64,000 nt of DNA from positions 3,232,001 through 3,296,000 of the forward strand of contig CM000154.2 of the NCBI GenBank assembly GCA_000004695.1, given 5' to 3'. This document shows, piece after piece, positions 27,791-57,368 of the stretch. A program made the position numbers and the translations under genes. Source of the stretch: Dictyostelium discoideum. Taxonomy: Eukaryota. Positions within the stretch are counted from its first letter, which is position 1. Every line of letters starts with the position of its first letter. The notes below the pieces were generated by a model that was not told the origin of the DNA, did not search any database, and saw only the letters and a list, made by a program, of their open reading frames with translations.

Positions 27791-27803
27791 AGGGATCGAC
27801 TCC
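27791..27803 (+). promoter_or_regulatory. Putative external B-box downstream of tRNA-Met, overlapping the TRE3 insertion site.
   Basis: GGGATCGACTCCC lies about 32 nt past the tRNA 3' end. It resembles the B-box consensus GGTTCGAnTCC. Confidence 0.3.
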
Positions 27804-27810
27804 CATTTAA
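27798..27810 (+). repeat. Target-site duplication of the TRE3 element, left copy. The right copy is at 33125-33137.
   Basis: GACTCCCATTTAA matches at 13 of 13 positions at both ends. The left copy directly precedes the 5' UTR. The right copy directly follows the A13 tail. Reconstructed empty site: ...agggatcGACTCCCATTTAActactcgg... Confidence 0.6.
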
Positions 27811-27965
27811 ATTTTTTAACGAAAAACGAAAAAAGAAATAAACGAGAATTTATACATATAATAAATAAATCACTGTTATATCTTCACCGCCACATTCATT
27901 CCTCTTAATTTTACCCTTTTTTTGCTCATTAAAGCAAGGGCTATCGTCCTATATACTTTTCAACA

Positions 27966-29174: not shown

Positions 29175-32100
29175 GCTCAAAAATCAACTTTATAACATGG
29201 AATTGTAGAGGATTCACTGAAAACGCAAACAATCAACACAATTCCTACCAAAAAGCTGTTGACACACTACAACTACTTATATCAAAACTTCCACCTCGTC
29301 CAACAATCTCAATACTCACTGAACTCAATTCATCACCATTACAACTTAAACATGATTTTCCCGATCACATCATCTCTGTCACCAAAAGAGGAAATGGTGT
29401 AATAATCATTAACCATAACCCAAACACACTCAAACTCAAACACATATCAACAATTGATGGTAGAGCTATTTTAGCAGACGTTATATTTCCAAATCAATTA
29501 CCAATTGGTATTCTTGGAATTTACGCACCAGCATCAAATAATACCATCAAAAAGAATTCATATGCAACTTCACTACAAACACTTCTCCACAACCACTCAA
29601 CAAACCCAATACCAAACCAATCCCAACATGTATCTATTATCGCAGGAGATTTCAACTGTATCCACAACGACAATTCACTATTAGATGATATTATCCAATC
29701 CTACACATACCAACACCATCTAATTGATCAAGGTGAATTTAAAAACACTCCAACTCATACACATGGTAACAGATTAGATAGAATATATACCCAATACAAT
29801 AGAATAGACCCTGAAAATATATATACACAAGTCCACCAAATTCCATCTTCATTATCAGATCATAATCCAATATCAACAACAATTTCTTCACCTTTTCAAA
29901 TAAATAAACATAAGAAAAGATGGATATTATCACCTGGTACTGCAAATGACCATGAAGCAATCAATATTATCAATCATTTAATAACTAATCACAATAACAC
30001 ATCAATCAATCAATTTACAAACTGGTCAAAAGTAAAATCAAAAATTATTAAAACTCTAAAAAACTATCAATATAACAAAGACAAACAAACTCAACGTGCA
30101 AAACAAATACTATTAGAAAAAGCAGGAAAATTCAAACATCTTGAAGAACAATGCATCGCTGAATACAATATTATATGTAACAAAAACAAATTACATCAAA
30201 ACCACACAAACATATTAAAAAAACATATAAATGGAGAAATACCTAGCAAGTATCTATCAGCAATACTAAACAAAAGATCAAAAGATGCAAAAATTGAATC
30301 AATCCAATATGGCAACATCATTACATCCGACCCCGACCAAATTGAAAATGCGTTTGTTGAATTCTACACAAATCTATATAGCTTACAAATATGTTGTCCA
30401 ATTACTCACCAGCTCATGCTAAACACATGGCCCATCATAAAAAATGAATATTGGAATGGTTTAGACTCACCATTTATACAAGATGAAGTTGAAGCTGCAA
30501 TTAAAACCTGTAACCCCAACAAATCACCCGGTCCAGATGGCGTTACAAATGCATTCTACATTAATCATTTAAACCAAGTTAAACCAATTCTCACTACATT
30601 ATTCAACGATATACTAGAAAATCCTCACCACATCACAACAGAATTCACCGAAGGTCTTATACACACAATTTACAAGAAAGGCAACCCCTTACTCATATCA
30701 AATCGTCGTCCCATTACACTTCTTAACACTGATTACAAGATCCTCTCAAAAGTAATCAATGCACGTCTTCTGAGAATACTTCCTTTCATCATCAACAACA
30801 ACCAAACTGGTTTCGTACCCCACAGATTCATCATAGACAACATCATCAACATCAATGAATTAATAAACTACCTCAAATCTAAAAACCTCCCTGGTATCAT
30901 CACACTATTTGACTTCTTTAAAGCATTTGATTCTATCTCTCACGATAGCATTAAAAGAACATTAATTCATATTGGAATACCAATAAAATTAATAAATTTA
31001 ATCCACAAGCTATTATCTGACTCACAAGCAAAAATTTCAATTAATGGTAAAACGACCAGAAAATTCGATATTAAAAGAGGTGTAAAACAAGGTGACCCAA
31101 TCTCAGCCACTTTATTTGTAATTGTAATTGAAATATTAGCAAGAACAATAAATGCAGACAATTCAATAATTGGATTACCAATTTCACCCAATCCACAAAT
31201 TAAAATCAAATTTACCCAATTTGCAGACGACTCTACAACATACAACATCAACTACGAACAACAACAACAATCAATAATCAAACATTTCGATAATTTCTGC
31301 GCTTCAACATCATCATCTTTAAATTTTGACAAAAGTGCAATTATAGAAATCAACCCCCACAAAATCACTGATAAACACTTAATAAACAACATTCCACAAT
31401 CAAAAAGAATTCCAATAACCAAAAAAGATCAATCAGAAAGAGTTCTTGACTATTTCTTTAATCATAATGGTTTACATAGGAAATTACCAGAAACAATGAA
31501 AACACTGATTAAATCATTAGTGCTATGGAAAACTATTGGTACAACATTAAAAACAAAAACAACCATCATAAACACCTACTCACTATCACCAATAACATAT
31601 TTATCATACCTTGAAGAATTTACAAAAGATGAAGAAATTCAAATTAATAAATTAATCTCATGGTTTATGAATTCTCCCGCAAATTCTGAATCACCAACTC
31701 TCAATACCAATTCCATTGAAAACAACACATCAACCATCCATTCACGTGCAAAAATACCTTTGATGTGTTATGATAGATCATTAAAACCATTAAAAGAAGG
31801 TGGTTGGGGTATGTGGAATATACAATTACGACAAGTTGCTCAAAAGATTTGGATATACAACAGATTTTTACAAATGCATAAATCTGCAAACAATTCAATA
31901 TACATGATAAGTTGGATGGATCAAATCATCAACAAATCAATCTCTTCTCCATACCTTATAAAAATAAAAAAAGAATGGGAAAACTATGCAACTCAAATTG
32001 GACATCTAAAAGATAAAGTTCAAATCCTACAACCAATATTAACAAAAAACCAACCCTCTCAAACATTAAACACAAATAATATTTCACTACCACCAACACT

Positions 32101-33001
32101 CAAAGAAATCTACTCGACAATACTAAACAATCACCAATGCAAATCAAAAGACTATATTGGCAAGAAATATTCAGATCTACTTCTTACTCCGCACCAACAA
32201 TCAATACAATTATTATGGAAATACACATACGACCAACTTTTTGTCAAAATTCAAAAATTAAAAGATCCAAAAGGCCGTGATACAATGCAAAGATTCCATG
32301 CTAGATGTCTTCCGATTAATCATCTACACAACAAAGTTTGCCCCATTTGCAACAATGAAATGAATAATGATCCCTATGGTCATTTGTTTTTCAATTGTCA
32401 GCACACAATCAACTCCATTAACCACGACAAATTAAAATATTTTATATATAAAAATTGCAATGGAAACAAAAACTGGTCACTAACAAAAAACCAAACAACA
32501 AAATTATACACACTCATCTATAAACCACAAACAAACAACAAAGCATTTAAACCAGATCCAACTATCAATATTAATTTTCATTTTGCAGAAAACGCACAAT
32601 ATAAAAAATACAGGTTCAACTGGAATTATATAAACACAAATCTTGATCTAGTCAGAACACATGCATATTGGAACATAATCTCATTAGTTATTCACCAAAT
32701 ATGGATATGGTTATGCAAATCATTATTTGACATCAATATAACTCAATCAATTGATAATTGGAACAACCAAATAAACAACACAACACTAGATTATGATATA
32801 TTAAAATCAAAATGGCACAAGCTAATAAGATTGGAATATTCAAGAACTTTATCAAACTTTAACCAATACTCAATTAAAAACAACCTCACAAAAACTCAAA
32901 AAGAAACCCAATGGTCTGAAACCATCAAAAAATTTAAAAAAGAATGGAGCATAAACACAAATGAACCAATTCCAACAATTACACCACCAATTAATTATTA
33001 A
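29171..33001 (+). CDS. TRE3-like ORF2 (1276 aa): APE-type endonuclease, reverse transcriptase and a C-terminal Cys/His motif.
   Basis: The N-terminus reads ITWNCRGF...SDHNPIS, the EEP endonuclease. The RT block is ...PGPDGV...FADDSTTY (FADD equals the YxDD box). The Cys/His motif is CPICNNEMNNDPYGHLFFNCQH. Confidence 0.85.
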   Translation: MSSKINFITWNCRGFTENANNQHNSYQKAVDTLQLLISKLPPRPTISILTELNSSPLQLKHDFPDHIISVTKRGNGVIIINHNPNTLKLKHISTIDGRAILADVIFPNQLPIGILGIYAPASNNTIKKNSYATSLQTLLHNHSTNPIPNQSQHVSIIAGDFNCIHNDNSLLDDIIQSYTYQHHLIDQGEFKNTPTHTHGNRLDRIYTQYNRIDPENIYTQVHQIPSSLSDHNPISTTISSPFQINKHKKRWILSPGTANDHEAINIINHLITNHNNTSINQFTNWSKVKSKIIKTLKNYQYNKDKQTQRAKQILLEKAGKFKHLEEQCIAEYNIICNKNKLHQNHTNILKKHINGEIPSKYLSAILNKRSKDAKIESIQYGNIITSDPDQIENAFVEFYTNLYSLQICCPITHQLMLNTWPIIKNEYWNGLDSPFIQDEVEAAIKTCNPNKSPGPDGVTNAFYINHLNQVKPILTTLFNDILENPHHITTEFTEGLIHTIYKKGNPLLISNRRPITLLNTDYKILSKVINARLLRILPFIINNNQTGFVPHRFIIDNIININELINYLKSKNLPGIITLFDFFKAFDSISHDSIKRTLIHIGIPIKLINLIHKLLSDSQAKISINGKTTRKFDIKRGVKQGDPISATLFVIVIEILARTINADNSIIGLPISPNPQIKIKFTQFADDSTTYNINYEQQQQSIIKHFDNFCASTSSSLNFDKSAIIEINPHKITDKHLINNIPQSKRIPITKKDQSERVLDYFFNHNGLHRKLPETMKTLIKSLVLWKTIGTTLKTKTTIINTYSLSPITYLSYLEEFTKDEEIQINKLISWFMNSPANSESPTLNTNSIENNTSTIHSRAKIPLMCYDRSLKPLKEGGWGMWNIQLRQVAQKIWIYNRFLQMHKSANNSIYMISWMDQIINKSISSPYLIKIKKEWENYATQIGHLKDKVQILQPILTKNQPSQTLNTNNISLPPTLKEIYSTILNNHQCKSKDYIGKKYSDLLLTPHQQSIQLLWKYTYDQLFVKIQKLKDPKGRDTMQRFHARCLPINHLHNKVCPICNNEMNNDPYGHLFFNCQHTINSINHDKLKYFIYKNCNGNKNWSLTKNQTTKLYTLIYKPQTNNKAFKPDPTININFHFAENAQYKKYRFNWNYINTNLDLVRTHAYWNIISLVIHQIWIWLCKSLFDINITQSIDNWNNQINNTTLDYDILKSKWHKLIRLEYSRTLSNFNQYSIKNNLTKTQKETQWSETIKKFKKEWSINTNEPIPTITPPINY

Positions 33002-38256: not shown

Positions 38257-41200
38257 TTAACCAAATTTTGGGAAATAATTCATTATTGTTTTCCAGTAAC
38301 TTTCTGGATGGGTTGAACAATGATTTTGATAAAAATGTATAAATAGTGTTCTAATTTGAGTAAGTCTTTGTTTTCTTCTTTCTTCAATCTCTTTGAAACT
38401 TAATGATTGACTATGATGACTATGTTGTTCATTTATATTTGATGTTGATTTTGATTTTTCATTATTATTATTATTTTGATTTTGATTTTGATTTTGATTT
38501 TGATTTTGATTTTGATTTTGATTTTGACCAACTTTATTAAGATTATTAATTTGATTTACTTTATTATTTGGTTGATTTTTGGTATTAATTTGATTTTTTA
38601 AAGTATCAAAATATTTATTTTCAAAAGAGAAAGCATTATCCCAACTTTGAGCTAAGCAATCACTATCATTATCTTCATCATCTGAAACCAATTTATGAGA
38701 TTTATCCTCTTCAGTCTCTTCACTTTGTTCACTACCAGTGAAACTACTAGATGGATGATAATTCTTTGGAGTTGAACCACCACCACTATTCAATGAACCA
38801 ATAATTCTTTTTTCAGTGAATGAACCCATCAATTGCCAACTACCACCAATTTCTGGTTCAACTTGAATATCATCATCTGATCCTCTTCTTCTCTTTGGTC
38901 CATTTGGTACATCCATTGGTATACTCGTACCTGAAGTTGCTGGTGATGTATGTAATTGGTGATGACCATGATGACCATGATGTCCATGATGTGATTGTTT
39001 AATCATAATAGATGATGATCCAAAACTACCAGCTATATTATTATTACTATTCATTGGTGAGTGAGAAATTGGTGTTGGCGGAGCTGATGTATTATTATTA
39101 TTGGTACTATTATTGGTACTATTATTGTTAGTGTTATTATTATTATTAAAATTATTATTATTATTATTATTACCAACTTTATTCATACCAATAAATAATT
39201 TTGGAGAATTATTTTGAGGAGTTACTGGTGCAGATTGAGAAATATCAATACCTTTTGTATTCCAACTACTTGGTGAAGAGTTTTTGTGTCCACCAATATT
39301 ACTATTATTATTACTATTTGATTTGTTTGATTTGTTTATATTTTTTACATTATTATTATTATTATTATTATTGTCTACAATATTTTTTCTATCTACATAA
39401 TTATTTACAATCTCTAATGGTTGTTGAGAATTTGAATTTTTACGATTACCAGTTGGAGTATTACCTTTATTATTTACAGATTGTTGTGATTGTGCTTGTT
39501 GTAACTGTTGTTTTAGTAATCCCATACCACTATTATTTGTAGTTTGTTGTTTTTCTTGTTGTTTATCTTGTTGTTTATCTTGTTGTTGTTGTTGATTTAA
39601 TTTATTAAAAGTATGAATTGAAAAATCCATTGAAGAGATGAAATCCAAGAAATAAAAACAGAAATAAAATATATCTTCACCTTTACCAGCTCTATCACAA
39701 AGTTGATGAGAGAATAAGAACCAATCGTAGGCAACCGTTAAAAAGAGCATTTCCCAATCCTTTAAAGATTGATGAACCTCACCATCAGCCCAAAGACTGA
39801 TTCTAAGTAATGAAATAAACAATGGTGTTCTATCCCATCCAGATATACAATGAACTAATAAACCAGATGGGTTATTATCATCAGATACATATTTTAATAA
39901 TAACTTGAAATAATTTTGTGTTAAATTTACTATTAAAAAGAGAAAAAAAAAAAAAAAAAATAATAGTTAATATATATCTATTTTTTTTTTATTTTTTTAT
40001 TTTTTAATATTAATATACTTACTTAAATCCCAAGTTTTATAAGATTCCCATGGTATCATTGGTAATTGATGATCTGGATGTAAATTTAATTCTGCTGGAT
40101 CTTCAATACCATCCCAAGAATAAAATAAATCTTTTCCACAATGTTGATTTCTATTAAAATCTGCAAAAAATTCTACACCAGGATAAGGAGTAGAAGAAAT
40201 TACAAAATCTTGATATCTTCGATGCATATCAACTTTTTCTGATGAACAAACAAAGAAACCAAACCTTTTTTTTTTTTTTTTAAAAAAATAAAAAATAAAA
40301 ATAAAGGTTAATGAAATTTGTTTTTATTATAATTATTATTATTATTTATTACTTACTTTTTCTTTTTATTTTCAACCATTAAATCACAAATGTATCTAAT
40401 ATTTAAATGTTTAATAACTAGAATATCATTATTTCTAAGATGTTCCATATCTAATTGTTGTTGTGCCTGTTGTTGTCGTATTTGAGTTGACTGTTGTTGT
40501 GCTTGTTGTTGATCATGTTGGCCTTCAACATGTGAATCATGATGTTGATAATGTTGATTAATAACTGAAGAAGTCATTGTACTATCATTTTTATTTAATC
40601 TATCAATATCAATTGAATCTTCAATCATACTATTAGTAATTGGATTATTTTGATTATTATTATTATTATTATTTTGATTATTATTATTATTATTAATTTG
40701 ATTATTATTATTATTTTGATTATTATTATTATTTTGATTATTATTATTATTACTAAACATTATAGATTGTGATAAAGAAGAAGTTGTTGGAGATGGAACA
40801 GAAGAAAATTGTTTTTTCATTGAATTAACACCAGATTGAAACATATATTCAATCTTTTGAGAGAGTGTTGAGGATCTACAAAGATTTTTATGATGATAAA
40901 ATATAACTGGAAATGGGAATCTTGTTCTTACACGTGCAAATCTAGATTGATCCAATAATTTTTCTAAATTACGAGAGAGTTCTGGATGAACGTGTTTATT
41001 CTTTTCTTTACATACTTTACATCCTGTCTCTAACTCGTGTTCAATAAAAATTAAATCTGGTGGGTATGTTGCGCATAATTCACCTTCTTTATTATTGATT
41101 AATGATATTTTATAATCTTTTTCAAATAATGTATTTACAATTTCTTGATATTTAAATAATTCCTTGTTTTTTTGTTTTGTTGTTGTTTTGTTTTAAATTA

Positions 41201-41762
41201 ATTAAATAATAAAAAAAAAAAAAAATTATTTAATATTAATATATATAATTATATAATATTAATAATAATTATTTTAAACTTACTTCATCTCTTTTACCAG
41301 GGAATGGTTGTTTATATCTTCTAAAATGAGCAAACATTTCGGCTAATTCAGATGCCAATGAATCACCACATGCAAGCGAGGGGTTAACTTCAAAAGAGTT
41401 CATTGTATTGGCATCGTTTGTCGTATTATCACCATTTGACGATATATCTTCAGAGACAACTATAGATGGTTCATCATCGTCATTGCTATTGATTGTGTTA
41501 TTATTATAGGAAACGAATTCTCTCTACTTATATTGCAAGTATTATTATTACTACTGCTGTCACTATTATTATTATTGTTTTTATTATTATTATTATTATT
41601 GTTATTATTATTATTATTACTGCTGCTGTTACTACTACTACCACTACTATCGTTTTCGACAGATTTTTTAGGGGATTGTGAACAAGGTGTATTTGAAGGC
41701 TTTATTGAAGAAATTAATTGTTCTGTTGTTGAGGATGGTGGTGTGCTAGAGGTAATTACCAT
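38257..41762 (-). CDS. Myotubularin-family phosphoinositide phosphatase (MTMR14/Jumpy-like, no GRAM domain evident). Four exons: 41285-41762, 40358-41162, 40024-40264, 38257-39929. The exon-1 copy contiguous here carries a frameshifting deletion.
   Basis: The catalytic P-loop is LVHCISGWDRTPLFISL (CX5R; compare myotubularin VHCSDGWDRT). The upstream motifs are GELCATYPPDLIFI and FPVIFYHHKN (compare ELCDTYP and IPAVIYRH). The N-terminal exon is S/N-rich. All intron donors are GTAAGT. The long Q/N-rich C-terminal exon ends at 38257. Confidence 0.65.
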
Positions 41763-41849
41763 TTTAATGGATTTGTTTTTTTAATGAGGTGAAAGTAATT
41801 GAGCGTATTCCTAGTGTGTGTCTTTTTTTTTTTTTTTTTTTTTTTTTTT

Positions 41850-41949
41850 NNNNNNNNNNNNNNNNNNNNNNNNNNNNNNNNNNNNNNNNNNNNNNNNNNN
41901 NNNNNNNNNNNNNNNNNNNNNNNNNNNNNNNNNNNNNNNNNNNNNNNNN
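41850..41949. other. Assembly gap (100 N).
   Basis: A literal run of 100 N. The sequence on either side (41130-41849 and 41950-43020) forms near-identical tandem copies. Confidence 0.95.
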
Positions 41950-42463
41950 TTCAAATAATGTATTTACAATTTCTTGATATTTAAATAATTCCTTGTTTTT
42001 TTGTTTTGTTGTTGTTTTGTTTTAAATTAATTAAATAATAAAAAAAAAAAAAAATTATTTAATATTAATATATATAATTATATAATATTAATAATAATTA
42101 TTTTAAACTTACTTCATCTCTTTTACCAGGGAATGGTTGTTTATATCTTCTAAAATGAGCAAACATTTCGGCTAATTCAGATGCCAATGAATCACCACAT
42201 GCAAGCGAGGGGTTAACTTCAAAAGAGTTCATTGTATTGGCATCGTTTGTCGTATTATCACCATTTGACGATATATCTTCAGAGACAACTATAGATGGTT
42301 CATCATCGTCATTGCTATTGATTGTGTTATTATTATTATTTGGTATTATTGGTGATATTGGACTTGGAATATCTTCATTGTTATTACTATTATTATTATT
42401 ATTATTATTTACATTTGGTTCATATGATACTTTTTTAAATTGCTTTGGTATATATGTATTTTC

Positions 42464-42505
<42 letters not shown>

Positions 42506-43020
42506 GTTATTGTTATTAGTACAATTATAGCTTTCATTTATTAAAATTTCGGATTTAGAATTTAATATCTCTTCATTTCTGCTGTTGTTATTATTATTGT
42601 CACAACTATTATTATTATTACTATTATTATAGGTTTCATTATTCTCTTCTACAGCAACTGCTTCTTCTAATGTTAAATCCATCATGAAAGGAAACGAATT
42701 CTCTCTACTTATATTGCAAGTATTATTATTACTACTGCTGTCACTATTATTATTATTATTATTGTTTTTATTATTATTATTATTATTATTATTGTTATTA
42801 TTATTATTATTATTATTACTGCTGTTACTACTACTACCACTACTATCGTTTTCGACAGATTTTTTAGGGGATTGTGAACAAGGTGTATTTGAAGGCTTTA
42901 TTGAAGAAATTAATTGTTCTGTTGTTGAGGATGGTGGTGTGCTAGAGGTAATTACCATTTTAATGGATTTGTTTTTTAATGAGGTGAAAGTAATTGAGCG
43001 TATTCCTAGTGTGTGTCTTT
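41950..43020. repeat. Segmental duplicate of the phosphatase exon 1, the first intron, and about 100 bp of the 3' end of the 805-bp second coding exon. The paralogous copies are 41130-41849 and 46880-47950.
   Basis: The three stretches are near-identical by direct comparison of long stretches. Each is followed by similar AT-rich spacer and then by a B-box/FNIP gene. Confidence 0.7.
42098..42958 (-). CDS. Intact copy of the first coding exon of the myotubularin-like gene (286 codons, MVITSSTPPSS...FPGKRDE, followed by a GTAAGT donor). It is separated from the catalytic exons by the gap.
   Basis: It is identical to 41460-41762, except that it retains about 352 bp (the FMMDLTLEEAVAVEENNETYNN...DDDEP stretch) that the 41.3-41.8 kb copy has lost. 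An identical intact copy exists at 47027-47887. Confidence 0.5.
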
Positions 43021-43553
43021 TTTTTTTTTTTTTTTTTTTTTTGGTTTTTTTTTTTTTTTAATTTATTTATTATTTTTTTTTTTTATTTTTTCTATTTTTT
43101 TTTATATTTTTTATTTTATTTTTTTTTTTTTTTATTTTGGTTTTTTTGAGTTTAACTTAATAAAAAAAAAAATAAAAAAAAATAAAAAAAAATAAAAAAT
43201 AAAAATTAAAAAAAAAAAAAAAAAAAAAAAAATAAAATAAAATAAAATAAAAAAAAAAATAAAGATAAACCTGAAAAAGAGAAATGATTATTTAAATATA
43301 CCTCTTTTTTTTTTAAGATTTAATTTTATATGTATTCAATATTTTTTATTTTAAAATTTAAATATCCATTTACAAACCAATTTTCAAAATTATTATTCAA
43401 GTTATCCAATAAAAATAGGCAATTTTCAATGACTAAAAAGGAAATACCATAAAGTTAAGATAGAATTAAATACATAATTAAGGAATTGATTTTTTTATTT
43501 TTTTTTTTTTTATTGGAATTGTTTAATTTAACCTAATGTTATTTTTCTGAATT

Positions 43554-45147
43554 CTATTTAATTATTTTTACATTTTTTGAAACATAAGGTTCAATTTGAT
43601 GTTTAAAACTTGTGAAAACTTTTACTTCCTTTACAGTATTAGGAATTGAACCAATTATTAATTCTTGTTTAATATCGCCTAAACGCAACGATTCAACACC
43701 ATCTGGTAATATACCTGGTGTTAATTTTTGATTGAATCCATCTTTTAAAGTAACACGAGTTACAGTATTAGGAATTGAACCAATTATTAATTCTTGTTTA
43801 ATATCGCCTAAATACAAGGATTTAACACCATCTGGTAATATACCTGGTGTTAATTTTTGATTGAATCCATCTTTTAAAGAGACAAGAGTTACAGTATTAG
43901 GAATTGAACCAATCATTAATTCTTGTTTAATATCGCCTAAATACAACAATTTAATACTATCTGGTAATATACCTGGTGTTAATTTTTGATTGAATCCATC
44001 CAATAAAGAGACATGAGTTACAGTATTAGGAATTGAACCAATCATTAATTCTTGTTTAATATCACCTAAATACAAGGATTTAACGCCATCTGGTAATATA
44101 CCAGGTGTTAATTTTTGATTGAATCTATCCAAGAGCATTACAGTAGATGGTAATTGATTTTTTAATTTTGATAAAATATTACAATTGTCTTTGAATGCTA
44201 TACCTTCATTCTCCTTAAATTTAAATGAATCATCCTCTATATAAACATAAAACTTTGAACTATCCCCTATATTTGGTAATTAGAATGATGTAAACATAAT
44301 TTATAAAAAAAACTGTATAAAGCTTACATTTAAAAAATTTATTTTTATTTTCATCGATTTCAATTATAAATCTACAATTATCTAAGGTATAAATTGATTT
44401 TAAATTATTTTTAATATCATCAATTATTTGATTATGGAAATGAATGATTTGATTATCGTATTCATTTAATTTATTTGAATTATTGATATTATTATTATTA
44501 TTTAATACTATTAATGATTGTTGATATTGTTTAATAATTTTAATTGTATCTCTATCAATAATAAAATCTTCTCCATTATCATAAATTTGTTGATCATTAA
44601 ATTTTATAATTTCATTTAATTTTTCAATAGTTGTAGTTCTATCATTTTCATTTTCATTATTATTATTAATTATAGTTGAAAGTATTTGATTATCATTATT
44701 GATTGAAGAAGTTATAATTGTATTTATTAATGTATTATTTTCAAAGGTTGTTTCTAATTGTTTTTTAATATCTAATTCTATGATTGAAATGATATCATGA
44801 ATTTTTTTAATTTCTTTTTTTAATGAATTATTATTAATATCAAATTGTGATTGAATTTCATTGTATTTATCATTTGATTCTTGTAATATTGTTTCATTGA
44901 TTTCTATTCTTTCAATTACTTTTTGGTATATATCATTTTTAAAATTATTCATTAATGAAAGAATATTTGAAGTTGATTCTAATGGATCAGTTTTATGACC
45001 ATGATGTTCACCTTTACTTGATGTACATTGAATACAACATGGTATTAATTTACAATCTAAACAAAAGAATACTATATCTTTATTTGGGTGAAGTGTACAC
45101 TTTTTATTATTATCAATATTATTTATTTTATTATGATTTGAAATCAT
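43554..45147 (-). CDS. B-box zinc finger / coiled-coil / FNIP-repeat protein, copy F2 (about 509 aa). Exons are 44328-45147 and 43554-44266. The intron is 61 nt (GTAAGC..ATAG), phase 1.
   Basis: The B-box reads [51 protein letters not shown]. The coiled-coil is [55 protein letters not shown]. The FNIP exon has 4.5 double repeats and ends KEVKVFTSFKHQIEPYVSKNVKIIK. The track start at 45222 (MVSHIKISGSKFFFFFF) is upstream poly-A read-through. The true ATG is at about 45147. Confidence 0.7.
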
Positions 45148-45906
45148 TGTGTTTGGGATTGGTGTGGATGTAAAAAAAAAAAAAAAAAATTTGGAACCAG
45201 AAATTTTTATATGAGACACCAAAAATAAAAAAAAATAAAAAAAATAAAAATAAAATCGCTTAAAAAATTAAGAAAAACAAAATCTTTTTTTTTTTTTTTT
45301 TTTAAAAAATAAATAAATAATTAAATATTTATATTGTTATTGATAAAAATTTAAAAAAAGGAAAAATATTTTGAATTCAATCGTTAATCATTTTTTTTTT
45401 ATAAAAAAAAAAGATATAATTTAATTATATATACAATGTTTTTTAAATCTCTATTTTTGGAACATTTTAATAGTAAATTAAATTTAAATATGTTTGCTGA
45501 CATTAATATGGCTGCTGAAATTAATATGCATGTAAATTAATATGGATGCTAAAATTAATATGGGACACACTATTGGCAATTTTAAATCACTAAAAAATAT
45601 CATCATGGTACAGCGGATCAATTAAATGGATTTTGTAATTTGAGGGTAAAAACAAATTTACTCAAACCTGGAATTAAATATACCTAAACCCATTCAAATG
45701 TTACCATTTGACGCCATATGGTAGTAAACTACTATTAATCATATTGATTATTTTATTTAAATTTTCAATTAAAACATTACAATGAGCAGTTTTGCGATGA
45801 TTTGCTTTTTTAAAACTCTGTTGGAAAATTATTAATATTTATTATATTTGATGTTATTTCTTCATTTTATCTTGTTTTGTCATGATTAGTAGGTTGGCTG
45901 TACCTG

Positions 45907-46441
45907 TTAACAGTAGTTTCTTACACTCTTTACAGTATTAGGAATTGAACCAATCATTAATTCTTGTTTAATATCACCTAAATACAACCATTCAACACTA
46001 TCTGGTAATATACCTGGTGTTATTTTTTGATTGAATTCATTCAATAAAGAGACACTCGTTACAATATTAGGGATTGATCCAATCTCCAATTCTTGTTTAA
46101 TATCGCCTAAACTCAACCATTTAACACCAACTGGTAAAATGCCTGGTTTTAATCTTTGATTGAATCCATCCAATAAAGAGACATGAGCTACAGTATTAGG
46201 AATTGAGCCAATTATTAATTCTTGTTTAATATCACCTAAATACAAGGATTTAACACCAACTGGTAAAATGCCTGGTGTTAATTTTTGATTGAATCCATCC
46301 AATAGCATTACATTTGATGGTAATTGATTTTTTAATTTTGATGATGAAATATTACAATTGTCTTTGAATGCTATACCTTCATTCTCCTTAATTTTAAATG
46401 AATTACCCTCTATATAAATATAAAACTTTAAATTATCCCCT
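45907..46441 (-). pseudogene. 3' fragment of a B-box/FNIP paralog: three FNIP double repeats plus the intron and exon-1 tail. It fuses at about 46441 to a myotubularin-gene fragment.
   Basis: ORF 45907-46308 reads LLDGFNQKLTPGILP... and ends SVRNYC (the type-II tail, as in F0). Upstream sequence matches the paralog intron, ...ctatataaatataaaactttaaattatcccct. It then switches abruptly to aatgttgattaataactgaagaagtcattg, which is the same as 40547-40580. Confidence 0.5.
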
Positions 46442-46446
46442 AATGT

Positions 46447-46543
46447 TGATTAATAACTGAAGAAGTCATTGTACTATCATTTTTATTTAATCTATCAATA
46501 TCAATTGAATCTTCAATCATACTATTAGTATTGGATTATTTTG

Positions 46544-46594
<51 letters not shown>

Positions 46595-47392
46595 TTGATT
46601 ATTATTATTATTTTGATTATTATTATTATTATTACTAAACATTATAGATTGTGATAAAATATAACTGGAAATGGGAATCTTGTTCTTACACGTGCAAATC
46701 TAGATTGATCCAATAATTTTTCTAAATTACGAGAGAGTTCTGGATGAACGTGTTTATTCTTTTCTTTACATACTTTACATCCTGTCTCTAACTCGTGTTC
46801 AATAAAAATTAAATCTGGTGGGTATGTTGCGCATAATTCACCTTCTTTATTATTGATTAATGATATTTTATAATCTTTTTCAAATAATGTATTTACAATT
46901 TCTTGATATTTAAATAATTCCTTGTTTTTTTGTTTTGTTGTTGTTTTGTTTTAAATTAATTAAATAATAAAAAAAAAAAAAAATTATTTAATATTAATAT
47001 ATATAATTATATAATATTAATAATAATTATTTTAAACTTACTTCATCTCTTTTACCAGGGAATGGTTGTTTATATCTTCTAAAATGAGCAAACATTTCGG
47101 CTAATTCAGATGCCAATGAATCACCACATGCAAGCGAGGGGTTAACTTCAAAAGAGTTCATTGTATTGGCATCGTTTGTCGTATTATCACCATTTGACGA
47201 TATATCTTCAGAGACAACTATAGATGGTTCATCATCGTCATTGCTATTGATTGTGTTATTATTATTATTTGGTATTATTGGTGATATTGGACTTGGAATA
47301 TCTTCATTGTTATTACTATTATTATTATTATTATTATTTACATTTGGTTCATATGATACTTTTTTAAATTGCTTTGGTATATATGTATTTTC

Positions 47393-47434
<42 letters not shown>

Positions 47435-47887
47435 GTTATTGTTATTAGTACAATTATAGCTTTCATTTATTAAAATTTCGGATTTAGAATTTAATATCTC
47501 TTCATTTCTGCTGTTGTTATTATTATTGTCACAACTATTATTATTATTACTATTATTATAGGTTTCATTATTCTCTTCTACAGCAACTGCTTCTTCTAAT
47601 GTTAAATCCATCATGAAAGGAAACGAATTCTCTCTACTTATATTGCAAGTATTATTATTACTACTGCTGTCACTATTATTATTATTATTATTGTTTTTAT
47701 TATTATTATTATTATTATTATTGTTATTATTATTATTATTATTATTACTGCTGTTACTACTACTACCACTACTATCGTTTTCGACAGATTTTTTAGGGGA
47801 TTGTGAACAAGGTGTATTTGAAGGCTTTATTGAAGAAATTAATTGTTCTGTTGTTGAGGATGGTGGTGTGCTAGAGGTAATTACCAT
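46447..47887 (-). pseudogene. Partial duplicate (5' fragment) of the myotubularin-like gene. It holds exon 1 intact, intron 1, and a rearranged piece of exon 2, with internal deletions.
   Basis: 47027-47887 equals 42098-42958, an identical 286-codon exon. 46660-46960 equals 40905-41170. 46447-46660 equals 40547-40765 with the (AAT)n altered. About 135 bp between two gataaa repeats is missing. The copy lacks the catalytic exons. Confidence 0.5.
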
Positions 47888-48630
47888 TTTAATGGATTTG
47901 TTTTTTAATGAGGTGAAAGTAATTGAGCGTATTCCTAGTGTGTGTCTTTTTTTTTTTTTTTTTTTTTTTTTTGGTTTTTTTTTTTTTTTAATTTATTTAT
48001 TATTTTTTTATTTTATTTTTTCTATTTTTTTTTTATATTTTTTATTTAAATTTTTTTTTTTTTTTTTTTTTTTTATTTTGGTTTTTTTTGAGTTAAACTT
48101 AATAAAAAAAAAAAAAATAAAAAAAAAATAAAAAATAAAAATTAAAAAAAAAAAAAAAAAAAAAATAAAATAAAATAAAAAAAAAATAAAGATTAACCTA
48201 AAAAAAGAAATGATTATTTAAATATCCCTCTTTTTTTTTTTAAGATTTAATTTTATATGTATTCAATATTTTTTATTTTAAAATTTAAATATGTTAAAAC
48301 ACTCTTTTTTTTTTTTTTTTTTTTTTTTTTTCAAGATTCAATTAAACACTGCCCTCTAAAGGAATAAAAGTAACAGTAATGTAAGTATTAAAAAAATTTT
48401 CAATATTATGCAAATTTCCATTATACTATCCTGATTTTTTTGAAATTTCAAAAAAAAAAAATATCTTTTTACAAATTATTATTCAAGTTATCTAATAAAA
48501 ATAGGCAATTTTCAATGACTAAAAAGGAAATACCATAAAGTTAAGATAGAATTTCCCAATTAAATACATAATTAAGGAATTGATTTTTTTTTTTTTTTTT
48601 TTTATTGGAATTGTTTAATTTAACCTAATG

Positions 48631-50518
48631 TTATTTTTCTGAATTCTTTTTAATTATTTTTACATTTTTTGAAACATAAGGTTCAATTTGATGTTTAAAA
48701 CTTGTGGAAACATTTACTTCCTTTACAGTATTAGGAATTGAACCAATTATTAATTCTTGTTTAATATCGCCTAAATTCAACGATTCAAAACCATCTGGTA
48801 ATATACCTGGTGTTAATTTTTGATTGAATCCATCTTCTAAAGTGACACGAGTTACAGTATTAGGAATTGAACCAATTATTAATTCTTGTTTAATATCACC
48901 TAAATCCAACGATTCAACACTATCTGGTAGAATACCTGGTGTTAATTTTTGATTGAATCCATCTTCTAAAGAGACATTCTTTACAGTATTAGGAATTGAA
49001 CCAATCATTAATTCTTGTTTAATATCACCTAAATCCAACGATTCAACACCTTCTGGTAGAATATCTGGTGTTAATATTTGATTGAATCCATCTTCTAAAG
49101 AGACAAGAGTTACAGTATTAGGAATTGAACCAATCATTAATTCTTGTTTAATATCACCTAAATACAACCATTTAACACTATCTGGTAATATACCTGGTGT
49201 TAATTTTTGATTGAATCCATCTTTTAAAGAGACAAGAGTTACAGTATTAGGAATTGATCCAATAATTAATTCTTGTTTAATATCACCAAAAAACAACCAT
49301 TCTACGCCATTTGGTAAAATACCTGGTGTCAATTTTTGATTGAATCCATCCAATAAAGAGACACGAGTTACAGTATTAGGAATTGAACCAATTATTAATT
49401 CTTGTTTAATATCACCTAAATACAAGGATTTAACGCCATCTGGTAATATACCAGGTGTTAATTTTTGATTGAATCCATCCAATAGCATTACATTTGATGG
49501 TAATTGATTTTTTAATTTTGATAAAATATTACAATTGTTTTTGAATGCTGTACCTTCATTCTCCTTAAATTTAAATGAATCACCCTCTATATAAACATAA
49601 AACTTTAAATTATCCCCTATATTTGGTTATTAGAATGATGTAAACATAATTTATAAAAAAAACTGTATAAAGCTTACATTCAAAAAATTCATTATTATTT
49701 TCATCGATTTCAATTTTAAATCTACAATTATCTAAGGTATAAATTGATTTTAAATTATTTTTAATATCATCAATTATTTGATTATGGAAATGAATGATTT
49801 GATTATCATATTCATTTAATTTATTTGAATTATCGATATTATTATTATTATTTAATACTATTAATGATTGTTGATATTGTTTAATAATTTTAATTGTATC
49901 TCTATCAATAATAAAATCTTCTCCATTATCATAAATTTGTTGATCATTAAATTTTATAATTTCATTTAATTTTTCAATGGTTGTAATTCTATCATTTTCA
50001 TTTTCATTTTCATTTTCATTTTTATTATTTTTATTATTAATTATAGTTGAAAGTATTTGATTATCATTATTGATTGAAGAAGTTATAATTGTATTTATTA
50101 ATGTATTATTTTCAAAGGTTTTTTCTAATTGTCTTTTAATATCTAATTCTATGATTGAAATGATGTCATGAATTTTTTTAATTTCTTTTCTTAATGAATT
50201 ATTATTATTATCAAATTGTGATTGAATTTCATTGTATTTATCATTTGATTCTTGTAATATTGTTTCATTGATTTCTATTCTTTCAATTACTTTTTGATAT
50301 ATATCATTTTTAAAATTATTCATAAATGAAAGAATATTTGAAGTTGATTCTAATGGATCAGTTTTATGACCATGATGTTCACCTTTACTTGATGTACATT
50401 GAATACAACATGGTATTAATTTACAATCTAAACAAAAGAATACTATATCTTTATTTGGGTGAAGTGTACATTTTATATTATTATCAATATTATTTATTGT
50501 ATTATGATTTGATACCAT
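48631..50518 (-). CDS. B-box / coiled-coil / FNIP-repeat protein, copy F3. Exons are 49678-50518 and 48631-49616. It has about 6.5 FNIP double repeats.
   Basis: [24 protein letters not shown]...B-box...coiled-coil. The intron is GTAAGC..ATAG. The FNIP exon (285 codons in the track) ends ...KEVNVSTSFKHQIEPYVSKNVKIIKKNSEK. Confidence 0.7.
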
Positions 50519-51154
50519 TGTGTTTGGGATTGGTGTGGATGTATTGAGAACCGGTTCTCAATCAATCGCACAACCTATTTATCAAACTAATCAAGGTATA
50601 AAAATGCAACTATAAATGTTACTATGTAAATACAACCATTCAACACTATCTGGTAATATATGTGGTGTTAGTTTTTGATTGAATCCATTTTTTAAATAGA
50701 CATGTGTCCCATGCCAAAATAAAACGAAACTTCATCTGTTAGTAACAAAAGAGTAAGCAGAAGAGTCAATAATTAAAATAAAAAATATTATTTTAATTTT
50801 TTTTTTTTTTTTTTTTTTTTATTTTTTTTTATTTTTTTTTATTTTTAATTTTTTATTTATAATTTTTTTTTTTTGTGAGCCGGCTAGACATAAATGAATA
50901 ATAAAAAAATATATACCAACTAAAAAAAAAAGAAATGAAAATAAATTATAAAATTAATAATAAAAATAAAAAGATAAAAATAAATAAAAGATATAAATAA
51001 AATAATATGAAAATTTTTTTTTTTTTTTTTATATTATTATAATTATTTTTTTTTAGTTGATATATATTTTTTTAATAATAATTTTAGTGCTAAAATTTTG
51101 TTTATATTTGAGATGATTATTAATTAAATGACTTTGACTTTTTTTTTTTTTCTA

Positions 51155-51321
51155 TGCCAAAATTACCATATTAATTTCAGCAGCCATATTAATTTCGGCA
51201 GCTATGTACATGCTGAAATTAATATGGCTGCTGAAATTAATACGGTAATTTTGGCAGACGTAAGTCCCATGCCAAAATTAATATGGCTGCTGAAATTAAT
51301 ATGGTAATTTTGGCATGGGAC
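51155..51321. repeat. Nested inverted-repeat (hairpin or MITE-like) structure built from ATTAATATGGCTGCTGAAATTAATA units.
   Basis: A 48-nt arm TGCCAAAATTACCATATTAATTTCAGCAGCCATATTAATTTCGGCAGC, then a TATGTACAT centre, then its reverse complement. A second palindrome follows: GTCCCATGCCAAAATTA...TAATTTTGGCATGGGAC. Related motif copies sit at 45495-45575. GTCCCATGCCAAAAT recurs at 50705. Confidence 0.6.
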
Positions 51322-51949
51322 AAATAAATAAGGAATAAATTATTTAAAAAAAATAAAAATTCTTATATTTTAATATTTTTTATTTAAATATTTATTGTAC
51401 ACCCATTATTTTTTATCATTTTATTATAGTTTTTAATAATATACAATATCATATATTAAACTATAATTTAATGTTTTAAAAAATGAGAAATTACAATAGT
51501 ATTATTTCCTATTAATTGTTGTATATTATTAAATTATAGTTTTATGTTTTAAAAAATGAGAAATTACAATAGTATATTGTGGTAAATCAATAAATTTTTT
51601 ATAATTTAATGACAAATTAATATTCAATTTTAATTAAATAATTTTAGATTTTATCAATTTTTAATTTATTAAAATATATTTTTATTATGGCCAGATTCTT
51701 TTTTATTATTTTATGATAATGTGTGATTAATTATTAATTAGAAATTGATATTAGTTTGTTAAAAATTTTATTACATTATAATATCGTTTCTTAAAATATG
51801 AGTTTTTGCGGTAGTTTAATTTCTCACAAAATAGTAAAATTTCTTAGGTTTTTTTTCTCTGGTGAATACATAATTAAGGAATTGATTTTTTTTTTTTTTT
51901 TTTTTTTATTGGAATTGTTTAATTTAACCTAATGTTATTTTTCTGAATT

Positions 51950-54211
51950 CTATTTAATTATTTTTACATTTTTTGAAACATAAGGTTCAATTTGATGTTT
52001 AAAACTTGTGGAAACATTTACTTCCTTTACAGTATTAGGAATTGAACCAATTATTAATTCTTGTTTAATATCGCCTAAATTCAACGATTCAACACCATCT
52101 GGTAATATACCTGGTGTTAATTTTTGATTGAATCCATCTTCTAAAGTGACACTCTTTACAGTATTAGGAATTGAACCAATTATTAATTCTTGTTTAATAT
52201 CACCTAAATCCAACGATTCAACACTATCTGGTAGAATACCTGGTGTTAATTTTTGATTAAATCCATCTTCTAAAGAGACATGAGTTACAGTATTAGGAAT
52301 TGAACCAATCATTAATTCTTGTTTAATATCACCTAAATACAACGATTCAACACCTTCTGGTAGAATACCTGGTGTTAATTTTTGATTGAACCTATCTTCT
52401 AACGAGACATTCGTTACAGTATTAGGAATTGAACCAATTATTAATTCTTGTTTAATATCGCCTAAATACAACAATCCAACACTTTCTGGTAATATACGTG
52501 GTGTTAATTTTTGATTGAATCCATCTTTTAAAGAGACACTCGTTACAGTATTAGGAATTGAACCAATTATTAATTCTTGTTTAATATCACCTAAATACAA
52601 CAATCCAACACTTTCTGGTAAAATACCTGGTGTTAATATTTGATTGAATCCATCTTCTAAAGAGACAAGAGTTACAGTATTAGGAATTGAACCAATCATT
52701 AATTCTTGTTTAATATCACCTAAATACAACAATTTAACACTATCTGGTAATATACCTGGTGTTAATTTTTGATTGAATCCATCTTTTAAAGAGACAAGAG
52801 TTACAGTATTAGGAATTGATCCAATAATTAATTCTTGTTTAATATCACCTAAATCCAACAATTTAATACTATCTGGTAATATACCTGGTGTTAATTTTTG
52901 ATTGAATCCATCTTTTAAAGTGACACGAGTTACAGTATTAGGAATTGAACCAATCATTATTTCTTGTTTAATATCACCTAAATACAACCATTCAACACTA
53001 TCTGGTAAAATACCTGGTGTTAATTTTTGATTGAATCTATCCAATAAAGAGATATGAGTTACAGTATTAGGAATTGAACCAATCATTAATTCTTGTTTAA
53101 TATCACCTAAATGCAACAATTTAACACTATCTGGTAATATACATGGTGTTAATTTTTGATTGAATCCATCTTTTAAAGAGACACGAGTTACAGTATTAGG
53201 AATTGAACCAATTATTAATTCTTGTTTAATATCGCCTAAATCCAACAATTTAATACTATCTGGTAATATACCTGGTGTTAATTTTTGATTGAATTCATCT
53301 TTTAAAGATACACGAGTTACAGTATTAGGAATTGAACCAATCATTATTTCTTGATTAATATCACCTAAATACAACCATTCAACACTATCTGGTAATATAC
53401 CTGGTGTTAATTTTTGATTGAATCCATCTTTTAAAGAGACAAGAGTTACAGTATTAGGAATTGAACCAATTATTAATTCTTGTTTAATATCACCTAAATA
53501 CAAGGATTTAACACCATCTGGTAATATACCTGGTGTTAATTTTTGATTGAATCCATCTTTTAAAGAGACATGGATTACAGTATTAGGAATTGAACCAATC
53601 ATTAATTCTTGTTTAATATCACATAAATCCAACAATTTAATACTATCTGGTAATATACCTGGGGTTAATTTTTGATTGAATCTATCCAATAAAGAGATAT
53701 GAGTTACAGTATTAGGAATTGAACCAATTATTAATTCTTGTTTAATATCGCCTAAATCCAACAATTTAATACTATCTGGTAATATACCTGGTGTTAATTT
53801 TTGATTGAATTCATCTTTTAAAGATACATGAGTTACAGTATCAGGAATTGAACCAATTATTAATTCTTGTTTAATATCACCTAAATACAAGGATTTAACA
53901 CAATATGGCAATATACCTGGTGTTAATTTTTGATTGAATCTATCCAATAAAGAGATATGGATTACAGTATTAGGAATTGAACCAATCATTAGTTCTTGTT
54001 TAATATCACCTAAATACAAGGATTTAATACTATCTGGTAATATGCATGGTGTTAATATTTGATTGAATCCATCCAATAAAGAGACATGGATTACAGTATT
54101 AGGAATTGAACCAATTATTAATTCTTGTTTAATATCACCTAAATACAAGGATTCAACGCCATCTGGTAATATACCAGGTGTTAATTTTTGATTGAATCCA
54201 TCCAATAGCAT
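51950..54211. repeat. Tandem array of about 17.5 x 129-bp coding repeats (FNIP double units) with high nucleotide identity between units.
   Basis: The unit ...gaatccatc...ggtgttaatttttgattgaatccatc... recurs every 129 nt over 2.26 kb. Shorter arrays of the same unit occur in F1, F0, F2, F3 and F5. Confidence 0.8.
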
Positions 54212-55220
54212 TACAGTTGATGGTAATTGATTTTTTAATTTTGATAAAATATTACAATTGTTTTTGAATGCTGTACCTTCATTCTCCTTAAATTTAAATG
54301 AATTACCCTCTATATAAACATAAAACTTTAAATTATCCCCTATATTTGGTAATTAGAATGATGTAAACATAATTTATAAAAAAAACTGTATAAAACTTAC
54401 ATTTAAAAAATTTATTATTATTTTCATCGATTTCAATTATAAATCTACAATTATTTAAGAAATAAATTGATTTTAAATTATTTTTAATATCATCAATTAT
54501 TTGATTATGGAAATGAATGATTTGATTATCGTTTTCATTTAATTTATTTGAATTATTGATATTATTATTATTATTTAATACTATTAATGATTGTTGATAT
54601 TGTTTAATAATTTTAATTGTATCTCTATCAATAATAAAATCTTCTCCATTATCATAAATTTGTTGATCATTAAATTTTATAATTTCATTTAATTTTTCAA
54701 TAGTTGTAGTTCTATCATTTTCATTTTCATTATTATTATTAATTATAGTTGAAAGTATTTGATTATCATTATTGATTGAAGAAGTTATAATTGTATTTAT
54801 TAATGTATTATTTTCAAAGGTTGTTTCTAATTGTTTTTTAATATCTAATTCTATGATTGAAATGATATCATGAATTTTTTTAATTTCTTTTTTTAATGAA
54901 TTATTATTAATATCAAATTGTGATTGAATTTCATTGTATTTATCATTTGATTCTTGTAATATTGTTTCATTGATTTCTATTCTTTCAATTACTTTTTGAT
55001 ATATATCATTTTTAAAATTATTCATTAATGAAAGAATATTTGAAGTTGATTCTAAGGGATCAGTTTTATGACCATGATGTTCACCTTTACTTGATGTACA
55101 TTGAATACAACATGGTATTAATTTACAATCTAAACAAAAGAATACTATATCTTTATTTGGGTGAAGTGTACATTTTATATTATTATCAATATTATTTATT
55201 GTATTATGATTTGATACCAT
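51950..55220 (-). CDS. B-box / coiled-coil / FNIP-repeat protein, copy F4, with a greatly expanded FNIP array. Exons are 54401-55220 and 51950-54339. The intron is 61 nt (GTAAGT..ATAG).
   Basis: The same N-terminal architecture as F2 and F3. The FNIP exon is a 753-codon open frame, about 17.5 x 43-aa double repeats (129-bp DNA units). Confidence 0.7.
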
Positions 55221-55824: not shown

Positions 55825-55939
55825 GTATGAAATTATTGTAAAATATTTGATGTTATTTCTTCATTTTATCTTGTTTTGCCATATGATTAGTGGGTTGGTT
55901 GTACCTGTTAATGGTAGTTTCTTGAATAGGAAATTCTTC

Positions 55940-57311
55940 TCATTCTCTGGTAGTGATAGCATTTTCTGGTAAAATATCTGGTGTTAATTTTTGATTGAAT
56001 CCTTCTAATAAAAAGATATTCGTTACAGTATTAGGTATTGAACCAATTATTAATTCTTGTTTGATATCACCTAAATCCAATGATCCAACACTATCTGGTA
56101 ATATACCTGGTGTTAATTTTTGATTAAATCCATCTTCTAAAGTGACATTCATTACAGTATTAGGAATTGAACCAATTATTAATTCTTTTTTAATATCACC
56201 TAAATACAACCATTCAACACCATCTGGTAATATACCTGGTGTTAATTTTTGATTGAATCATCTTTTAAAGAGACAAGAGTTGCACTATCAGGAATTGAAC
56301 CAATCATTAATTCTTGTTTAATATCATACAAATGCAAACATTTAACACTATTTGGTAATATACCTGGTGTTAATTTTTGATTGAATCCATCCAATAAATC
56401 GACATTCGTTACAGTATTAGGAATTGAACCAATCTCTTATTCTTGTTTAATGTCACCTAAATACAATGAACCAAGACGATTTGGTAATATACCTGGTGTT
56501 AATTTTTGATTGAATCCATCTAGTAAAGAGATACTCGTTACAGTATTAGGAATTGAACCAATTATTAGTTCTTGTTTAATATCACCTAAATACAAAGATT
56601 TAACACCAACTGGTAAAATGCCTGGTGTTAATATTTGATTGAATCCATCCAATAGCATTACACGTGATGGTAATTGATTTTTTAATTTTGATAAAATATT
56701 ACAATTGTTTTTGAATGCTATATCTTCATTCGTCTTAAATTTAAATGAATCACCCTCTATATAAACATGAAACTTTGAATTATCCCCTATATTTGATAAT
56801 TAGAATGATGTGAACATAATTTATAAAAAACTGACTAAAGCTTACATTCAAAAAATTTATTATTATTTTCATCGATTTCAATTTTAAATCTACAATTATC
56901 TAAGGTATAAATTGATTTTAAATTATTTTTAATATCATCAATTATTTCATTATGGAAATGAATGATTTGATTATCGTATTCATTTAATTTATTTGAATTA
57001 TTGATATTATTATTATTATTTAATACTATTAATGATTGTTGATATTGTTTAATAATTTTAATGGTATCTCTATCAATAATAAAATCTTCTCCATCATTTT
57101 CATTTTCATTTTTACTACTACTATTGCCAACATTATTTTGCGATGCATCATTGGTGGCATTAGTAGTTGTAGTTGTAGTGGTAGTTGAATCGATGTTTTT
57201 AAGTTTGGAACTGATATCAGAATGTTCATCAATGGATGGATGTATAAATGATTGAATTTGAAAAAGATTATCTGCTATTGGTCTTTCTTCAAGTTGTGAT
57301 TTATCAATATA

Positions 57312-57368
<57 letters not shown>

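Follow-up and report, generated by a model that had tools for sequence, protein, structure and literature searches.

MTMR14, also named hJumpy or EDTP, is a conserved 3-phosphatase of phosphatidylinositol 3-phosphate and phosphatidylinositol 3,5-bisphosphate, and is implicated in animal autophagy. Segmental duplications are non-transposon sequences of at least 1 kb with at least 90% identity, and the Dictyostelium B-box/FNIP family (DDB_G0289849, DDB_G0289777, DDB_G0289799) consists of genes with a B-box exon, a 61-nt intron and 129-nt repeats. In a 64,000-nt stretch of the Dictyostelium discoideum genome (GCA_000004695.1, contig CM000154.2, positions 3,232,001 to 3,296,000; "the window" below) we found that the 5' end of an MTMR14 gene is present a second time within an array of such B-box/FNIP genes. 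Quite probably, this second copy is a real and recent partial duplicate of MTMR14 that is decaying as a pseudogene, and the window has mis-assembled the two versions of exon 1. A literature search on the locus, on Dictyostelium MTMR14 and on FNIP/B-box biology found nothing specific.

The MTMR14 gene and the second copy of its 5' end

We mapped the repeats of the window by self-BLAST and exact-match extension, and compared them with contig CM142511.1 of assembly GCA_054883475.1, from which 43 kb were taken as two stretches (L003 and L004), both free of N. Ten de novo Nanopore+Illumina assemblies were described by Holland et al. 2025 (PMC12745789); CM142511.1 is probably one of these, and we infer AX2-214 as the best candidate for its strain.

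The window is of the AX4 type, to judge from the AX4 proteins that it encodes (DDB_G0289849, DDB_G0289777), and belongs to chromosome 5. It has a base composition of ~22% GC with AAT/ATT triplet runs, and its minus strand carries all genes between 38 and 58 kb. The functional phosphatase gene (copy 1, 38257-42958, minus strand) was modelled with four exons (e1 42958-42113, e2 41162-40357, e3 40264-40023, e4 39929-38257) and canonical GT-AG introns of 121, 92 and 93 nt, and its open frame gives a product of 1188 aa; in the window this model spans an assembly gap. The CM142511.1 locus (3873 nt, annotated with 1188 aa), when read with the same splice sites, gave a protein identical to that of the window model. 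The active site, a CX5R motif of the MTMR14 type (HCxSGWDRT), was read directly as VHCISGWDRTPLF (VHCISGWDRT, near 39850). The protein had 509 homologue matches, and the MTMR14 orthologues among them were from vertebrates (E ~1e-87, 64-73% of the query covered) and other dictyostelids (up to 1e-184 to 1e-211, 56-64% identical); likeness to vertebrate and other amoebozoan MTMR14 takes in the whole catalytic region. Hmmscan of the copy-1 model returned Y_phosphatase3 alone (21.1 bits, cut-off 22.2), and PF06602 is precomputed on many of the homologues. The gene, which a previous reading from the sequence alone had rightly called myotubularin-like, can be named more precisely from its active site and homologue matches as an MTMR14/Jumpy/EDTP orthologue.

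Unlike MTMR14 elsewhere, the Dictyostelium gene begins with a long Asn-rich N-terminal exon of 282 aa, and Asn/Gln-rich inserts typical of Dictyostelium also set it apart. The C-terminal part of this exon is 69% identical to the D. purpureum gene model DICPUDRAFT_153794, therefore exon 1 is a genuine, conserved coding exon. The length of 286 codons that had been given for it comprises 282 codons and four codons of intron read-through.

Copy 2 of the MTMR14 5' segment lies at 46443-47971 on the minus strand, as delimited by exact matches and by alignment to copy 1, and is made up of upstream sequence (47888-47971), exon 1 (47887-47042), the retained intron 1 (47041-46921, 121 nt) and an exon-2 fragment (46920-46443). 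It ends at 46441 within exon 2, and the catalytic exons and the CX5R motif are absent. At the chimeric junction (46441-46442) the exon-2 piece is joined to a 5'-truncated FNIP fragment (45907-46442, minus strand; exon 2 only, three FNIP repeats, Pfam E 2.5e-35, no B-box), which begins at the AG acceptor of the 61-nt intron of the family and is 88-91% identical to the matching parts of the three B-box/FNIP genes nearby, here FNIP1, FNIP2 and FNIP3. The two are joined through TA, which is common to MTMR14 exon 2 (copy 1, 40549-40550) and the FNIP intron end: the junction reads TTATCCCC-TA-ATGTTGATT, and its parents read ATGTTGA-TA-ATGTTG (MTMR14 exon 2) and TTATCCCC-TA-TATTT (FNIP intron end). 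The copy-2 junction string is TTATTAATCAACATTAGGGGATAA, and the join creates a TAG stop in the phosphatase frame. The sequence-only reading had proposed a truncated phosphatase pseudo-paralogue without catalytic exons, B-box/FNIP genes adjoining both phosphatase copies, and a join of exon 2 to a FNIP fragment at about 46441 by 2-bp microhomology, and all of this was confirmed. Its 135-bp deletion between gataaa repeats does lie between direct repeats (TGATAAA), but measures 124 bp by alignment (46400-46720 against 40480-40960). This deletion (copy 1 40770-40893, join at 46651/46652) shifts the frame, and copy 2 further carries a 1-nt deletion near 46530 and ATT-repeat length differences.

The second copy and its junction recur in CM142511.1. 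This contig is collinear with window 32706-64000 (L004: 55524->32706) but for two structural differences, namely that it is without 41508-42336 at copy 1 and without 47266-47617 at copy 2. No mismatch to the window was found over 5.4 kb; the junction region of copy 2 is matched at 100% identity, and neither the junction nor the 124-nt deletion differs between the two assemblies (L003 20200-21902, L004 7883-13192). The 21.6-kb CM142511.1 locus contains exactly two occurrences of the MTMR14 5' sequence, with both copies, their unique flanks, the MTMR14/FNIP junction and the copy-specific deletions present. Elsewhere, the only differences between the assemblies are homopolymer lengths and a cluster at 43040-43133 beside the poly-T run. 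This cluster comprises two G/T sites (43065, 43069) and an indel of 4 nt (43040-43043), and would fit mixed reads, or reads of low quality, in the reference at this spot.

Since an independent gapless assembly carries the second copy and the junction, the duplication is real, and two copies of the segmental-duplication class are present independently of the window assembly. Assembly duplication is classically suspected where identity reaches 100% over more than 1 kb beside a gap, and a genome with a single MTMR14 5' end had been named as what long reads would reveal in that case; however, the de novo long-read assembly has both copies with specific flanks, a unique junction and specific deletions, so that the chance of a pure artefact is negligible and would require that both assemblies share one error.

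In the annotation of GCA_054883475.1, a 450-aa multi-exon gene is placed over copy 2 (L003 19945-21764 / L004 7628-9447, window ~47870->45701). Its span, from the exon-1 ATG of copy 2 to a point past the stop of the FNIP fragment, makes it a predicted chimeric MTMR14-FNIP gene; the model was not reproduced with up to four GT-AG introns.

The reading frame of copy 2 has one break in the window version, whose product would be 374 aa long and end soon after the 124-nt deletion, and two breaks in the gapless version, whose product would be 100 aa long. Neither conceptual product had a domain in a Pfam search; the long N-terminal phosphatase fragment once envisaged for copy 2 is not borne out. With the catalytic exons gone and with its decay by deletions, copy 2 is best read as a non-functional duplicated pseudogene. 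A processed pseudogene (retrocopy) was rejected, because intron 1 is kept and upstream promoter sequence (~85-107 nt) was copied too. Because the promoter-proximal region, a start codon and the AG acceptor of the FNIP intron are retained, copy 2 might be transcribed and spliced into a chimera of the MTMR14 N-terminus and FNIP repeats, or, as a regulatory RNA or a decoy, influence MTMR14; we consider this very improbable, though if true it would show a gene of a model organism that has only just arisen.

The assembly gap and the two versions of exon 1

Copy 1 is interrupted in the window by an assembly gap of 100 N (41850-41949), the sole N run of the window, and CM142511.1 (L004) has no N. Left of the gap, 41508-41849 (minus strand) holds an apparently misplaced 5' part of exon 1 in a deleted version ("D-type") together with 87 nt upstream, and this left contig ends at the gap within a poly-T run (~27 nt) upstream of the ATG. 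The adjoining 387 nt (41121-41507, minus strand), which run from the 3' part of exon 1 through intron 1 into exon 2, recur exactly across the gap at 41950-42336 (100%). In CM142511.1, L004 12806-13192 matches both segments, which is a single occurrence at copy 1; the 387-nt repeat on either side of the gap is evidently contig-end redundancy. The earlier two-copy account of exon 1 missed both the gap and the third partial exon-1 piece, and the edge of 41950 that it gave to the duplicated unit is merely the first base after the gap, copy 1 really reaching 40549.

The deleted version of exon 1 differs from the intact version by a 352-nt deletion, an Asn tract 15 nt shorter, and two additions, AGC and (upstream of the ATG) A. 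Its deletion join reads TTTCCT directly followed by ATAATAATAAC, and its ATG at 41762 opens only a frameshifted open reading frame (ORF) of 100 aa. Exact identities in the window are 41950-43042 with 46879-47971 (1093 nt, 100%, both 286-codon ORFs included) and 40894-41507 with 46652-47265 (614 nt, 100%). The equality of 42098-42958 and 47027-47887, on which a perfectly intact copy-2 exon 1 had been claimed, thus exists in the window. It does not extend to the gapless assembly, where the intact exon 1 is on the real gene and copy 2 carries the 352-nt frameshifting deletion: L003/L004 go from 47618 directly to 47265 (four-way alignment), without the minus-strand segment 47266-47617, which equals 42337-42688. 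The same deleted sequence is orphaned at the gap edge of the window, where 954 nt (41847->40894) agree with the copy-2 exon-1 region of CM142511.1 at 100% identity. The segment 41508-42336 that CM142511.1 lacks at copy 1 consists of the piece in the deleted version, the gap of 100 N and one 387-nt repeat; these 829 surplus nt account for the different spans of the gene (4702 nt in the window, 3873 nt in CM142511.1).

We conclude that assembly errors of the window are the most likely source of both the intact copy-2 exon 1 and the third, partial exon-1 piece, and that the 352 nt at 47266-47617 are probably copy-1 sequence assembled twice. With the poly-T run on one side and 614 nt identical between the copies on the other, the two versions could not be assigned by a Sanger-era assembler. 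The window assembly, unable to cross either stretch, would have put the intact version into copy 1 and copy 2 alike, and the deleted version would have remained as a loose end beside the 100-N gap within the real gene.

Taken at face value, the window sequence would instead describe AX4 correctly, with three copies of exon 1, the deleted one on the catalytic exons and the intact ones in copy 2 and next to FNIP1, and with a gap that hides more sequence, possibly a unit of exon-2 fragment and FNIP gene. Such tandem arrays can expand by unequal exchange, and the real gap may be of any length. This account, however, needs a triplication and a version swap relative to a sister laboratory strain that is otherwise base-identical over tens of kb, and the extra copy would lie exactly at the gap, with 387 nt of contig-end redundancy and a contig end in a poly-T run, which Sanger reads rarely cross. 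It would also leave MTMR14 frameshifted in AX4, though exon 1 is conserved in D. purpureum. We therefore regard three copies as improbable.

Several points weigh against a real recent duplicate combined with a mis-assembled window. CM142511.1 is the assembly of a different strain, probably AX2-214, so that the intact and deleted versions of copy-2 exon 1 could be a true difference between AX4 and AX2, and the mis-assembly was judged from the two assembled sequences. The 100 N need not reflect the true length of the gap, in which a further unit could be concealed. Near-identical repeats may also be resolved wrongly in Nanopore assemblies, yet both copies have unique flanks within ~2 kb. As to the recent date, an old duplication that was homogenised by gene conversion would give the same pattern of identity.

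Age and probable origin of the duplicate

Differences between the copies were counted on the CM142511.1 sequence as clean substitutions, that is, those with three matching columns on either side. None was found in 1165 aligned columns of the phosphatase part, whereas the spacers S1 and S2 upstream of it had 9 in 471 (Fisher p = 1.3e-5). The last clean difference is at -107 from the ATG, and identity falls sharply from 100% to ~90-93% at 43042/47971. Beyond this step, S1 (43043-43553, minus strand, from the FNIP1 stop to the MTMR14 promoter) is an older paralogue of S2 (47972-48630). All changes of copy 2 after the duplication are deletions or repeat slippage, with no substitutions.

The duplicated unit had been drawn as exon 1, intron, spacer and FNIP gene together, and dated as very recent. 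The date fits the phosphatase part, which has no substitutions, but not the FNIP genes and spacers, which are only ~90-95% identical (93-95% overall for the genes, ~90-93% for S1/S2). A single recent duplication of the whole unit was rejected on two grounds, the identity step at 43042/47971 and the closer relation of FNIP1 to FNIP3, as its B-box exon is 98.8% identical to that of FNIP3 and 95.3% to that of FNIP2. Moreover, no homology was found on comparison of the spacers 45223-45906 and 50519-51949. From the identity step, the nearness of FNIP1 to FNIP3 and the unrelated spacers, it appears that the phosphatase piece alone is recent, and that the FNIP genes and their spacers are older paralogues with a mosaic history. 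A locus of D. cf. discoideum (L005), which we examined as a sister lineage, was not syntenic.

The non-allelic recombination proposed for this cluster agrees with one breakpoint, as the boundary at 43042/47971 lies in paralogous spacer, but not with the other, where 46441-46442 shows only the TA microhomology. Pure non-allelic homologous recombination was thus rejected, since extended homology is found at one breakpoint and a 2-bp microhomology at the other. The same combination, spacer homology at one end and microhomology at the other, fits templated break repair better than classic unequal crossing-over. We suggest that in the NC4/AX lineage of D. discoideum ~2.5 kb of the MTMR14 5' end were copied once into the FNIP array ~5 kb upstream, where they took the place of the promoter, the B-box exon and the intron of one FNIP gene. 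The copied stretch would begin at ~-85/-107 (counted from the ATG), take in exon 1 and intron 1, and end within exon 2 at codon ~204. The steps would be a break in the FNIP gene, strand invasion via the S2/S1 spacer homology, copying of the MTMR14 promoter, exon 1, the intron and part of exon 2, and rejoining of the end by TA microhomology at the FNIP intron end. Given a real duplication, we allow an even chance that it arose by such a templated repair of a FNIP-gene break from the MTMR14 locus, judging from the breakpoints.

The main rival for the origin is an old duplication (~5-10% divergence) of the whole unit of MTMR14 5' end, spacer and FNIP gene. Gene conversion from copy 1 would later have evened out the phosphatase parts, and copy 2 would have acquired its deletions after that. 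In its favour, the homology of S1 and S2 continues to the very edge of the 100%-identical block, and older paralogy therefore extends at least as far as -107 from the ATG; the mosaic of FNIP1, FNIP2 and FNIP3 indicates conversion or recombination at work in the cluster, and the differences of the phosphatase copies are all indels. However, the conversion tract would have to span the whole ~1.5-2.5 kb up to the non-homologous junction and leave no old substitution. In addition, a simple tandem duplication predicts homology between 45223-45906 and 50519-51949 and a gene like the broken FNIP gene upstream, and neither was seen. Five separate indel events would have followed the conversion without a substitution, which is possible, and high indel rates are expected in AT-rich repeats such as these. 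We hold this origin to be conceivable and somewhat less probable than templated repair.

The FNIP array, its surroundings and the comparison with known systems

Six B-box/FNIP loci are present in the window, at 3000-4400 (+), 26181-27282 (-), 43554-45147 (-), 48631-50518 (-), 51950-55220 (-) and 55900-57841 (-), along with two FNIP fragments, at 45907-46442 and 50627-50707. FNIP1 (43554-45147, minus strand) has a spliced model of 510 aa with a 61-nt intron (44327-44267) and Pfam zf-B_box; this model is AX4 DDB_G0289849 / Q54GZ7 and matches XP_636010.1/EAL62525.1 and KAM9947889.1 exactly. FNIP2 (48631-50518, minus strand) encodes 608 aa with 6.5 FNIP repeats, and CM142511.1 has a called gene of 608 aa at this place. 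FNIP3 (51950-55220, minus strand) encodes 1069 aa with 17 tandem FNIP repeats of 129 nt, as found with Pfam. The Pfam matches of the B-box/FNIP genes were zf-B_box (PF00643, E 2e-8) and FNIP (PF05725, E 4.5e-196, 17 repeats). The locus at 26181-27282 encodes AX4 DDB_G0289777, and 57841->~55900 is ACTFIT_001230.

In its B-box exon, 61-nt intron and 129-nt repeats the recipient array is like the rest of the Dictyostelium B-box/FNIP family, and its genes carry 3 to 17 copies of the repeat unit. The fragment at 45907-46442 differs from the family members in that its B-box exon is lost and phosphatase sequence adjoins it. The spacer downstream of FNIP1 is common to FNIP2 only, and these mosaic relationships of the FNIP genes suggest frequent conversion or unequal exchange in the array. 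A lone FNIP repeat remnant of 81 nt (50627-50707), with ~88-90% identity to the repeats, precedes the start codon of FNIP2 by ~100 nt and is another rearrangement relic of the array. A further FNIP locus lies 200 kb away from the window locus.

Elsewhere in the window, a non-LTR (non-long-terminal-repeat) retrotransposon (27686-33001 region) begins ~200 nt downstream of a tRNA-Met gene (27686-27760, +), with ORF1 at 27966-29174 and ORF2 at 29171-33001, the latter with endonuclease and reverse-transcriptase domains. Its placement follows the pattern of the tRNA-targeted TRE elements of Dictyostelium and is the same in CM142511.1. ARAGORN called a tRNA-Ser(gga) at 7486-7563 (+) inside a formin ORF (5701-9105, minus strand; FH2/FH3/GBD domains), which is probably a false positive.

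The word-indexed protein search was lossy: P. violaceum appeared in one MTMR14 search and not in the other, and the same-species 1188-aa MTMR14 and 608-aa FNIP2, both called genes in CM142511.1, were missed. Because the search missed same-species proteins that demonstrably exist, we did not use its negatives as evidence, and the absence of a D. discoideum entry from two phosphatase homologue searches carries no meaning under such word-based retrieval. Exact look-ups of the 1188-, 946-, 608-, 1069-, 374- and 286-aa models and of the 100-aa ORF found none in the protein collection, and the same held for window ORFs of 455 aa (TPR), 1276 aa (retrotransposon ORF2), 129 aa, 337 aa (OMT) and 432 aa (FMO). 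The unmatched window ORFs (TPR, ORF2, OMT, FMO, 129-aa and exon-1) are genes spliced or annotated differently.

For users of the genome, the AX4-type reference splits MTMR14 with a gap and what is most likely a spurious extra exon-1 piece, and its pseudogene has probably been given the wrong exon-1 version; the corrected MTMR14 model has four clean exons and 1188 aa. Knock-outs, CRISPR guides, primers and read mapping at exon 1 and the start of exon 2 meet a second, substitution-free copy 5 kb away. Further, the substitution rate of this genome is extremely low, and the locus shows how a partial duplicate of very young age has so far decayed in it, by deletions and repeat slippage only; it also illustrates the turnover within a FNIP gene array.

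Compared with known systems, copy 2 holds only the N-terminal exon and part of exon 2 of MTMR14, and with the catalytic exons gone it is no phosphatase. It is like non-processed partial pseudogenes in its kept intron, copied promoter-proximal sequence, breakpoint inside an exon and frameshifting deletions, and like the fragments of segmental duplications it sits few kb from its parent in a tandem gene array. Unlike classic duplicate fragments, it has one end in an older paralogous spacer and the other at a 2-bp microhomology join at an intron acceptor. The window shares with gap-edge mis-joins of Sanger-era assemblies the 100-N placeholder, the redundant 387-nt contig ends and the homopolymer contig end, and, as in Sanger-era repeat mis-joins, two versions of a repeat are assigned differently from the long-read assembly; unlike plain assembly artefacts, a real biological duplication underlies it. 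The event is thus an ordinary lineage-specific, non-processed partial duplicate overlaid with a standard assembly artefact, a new instance of known systems and not a new kind.

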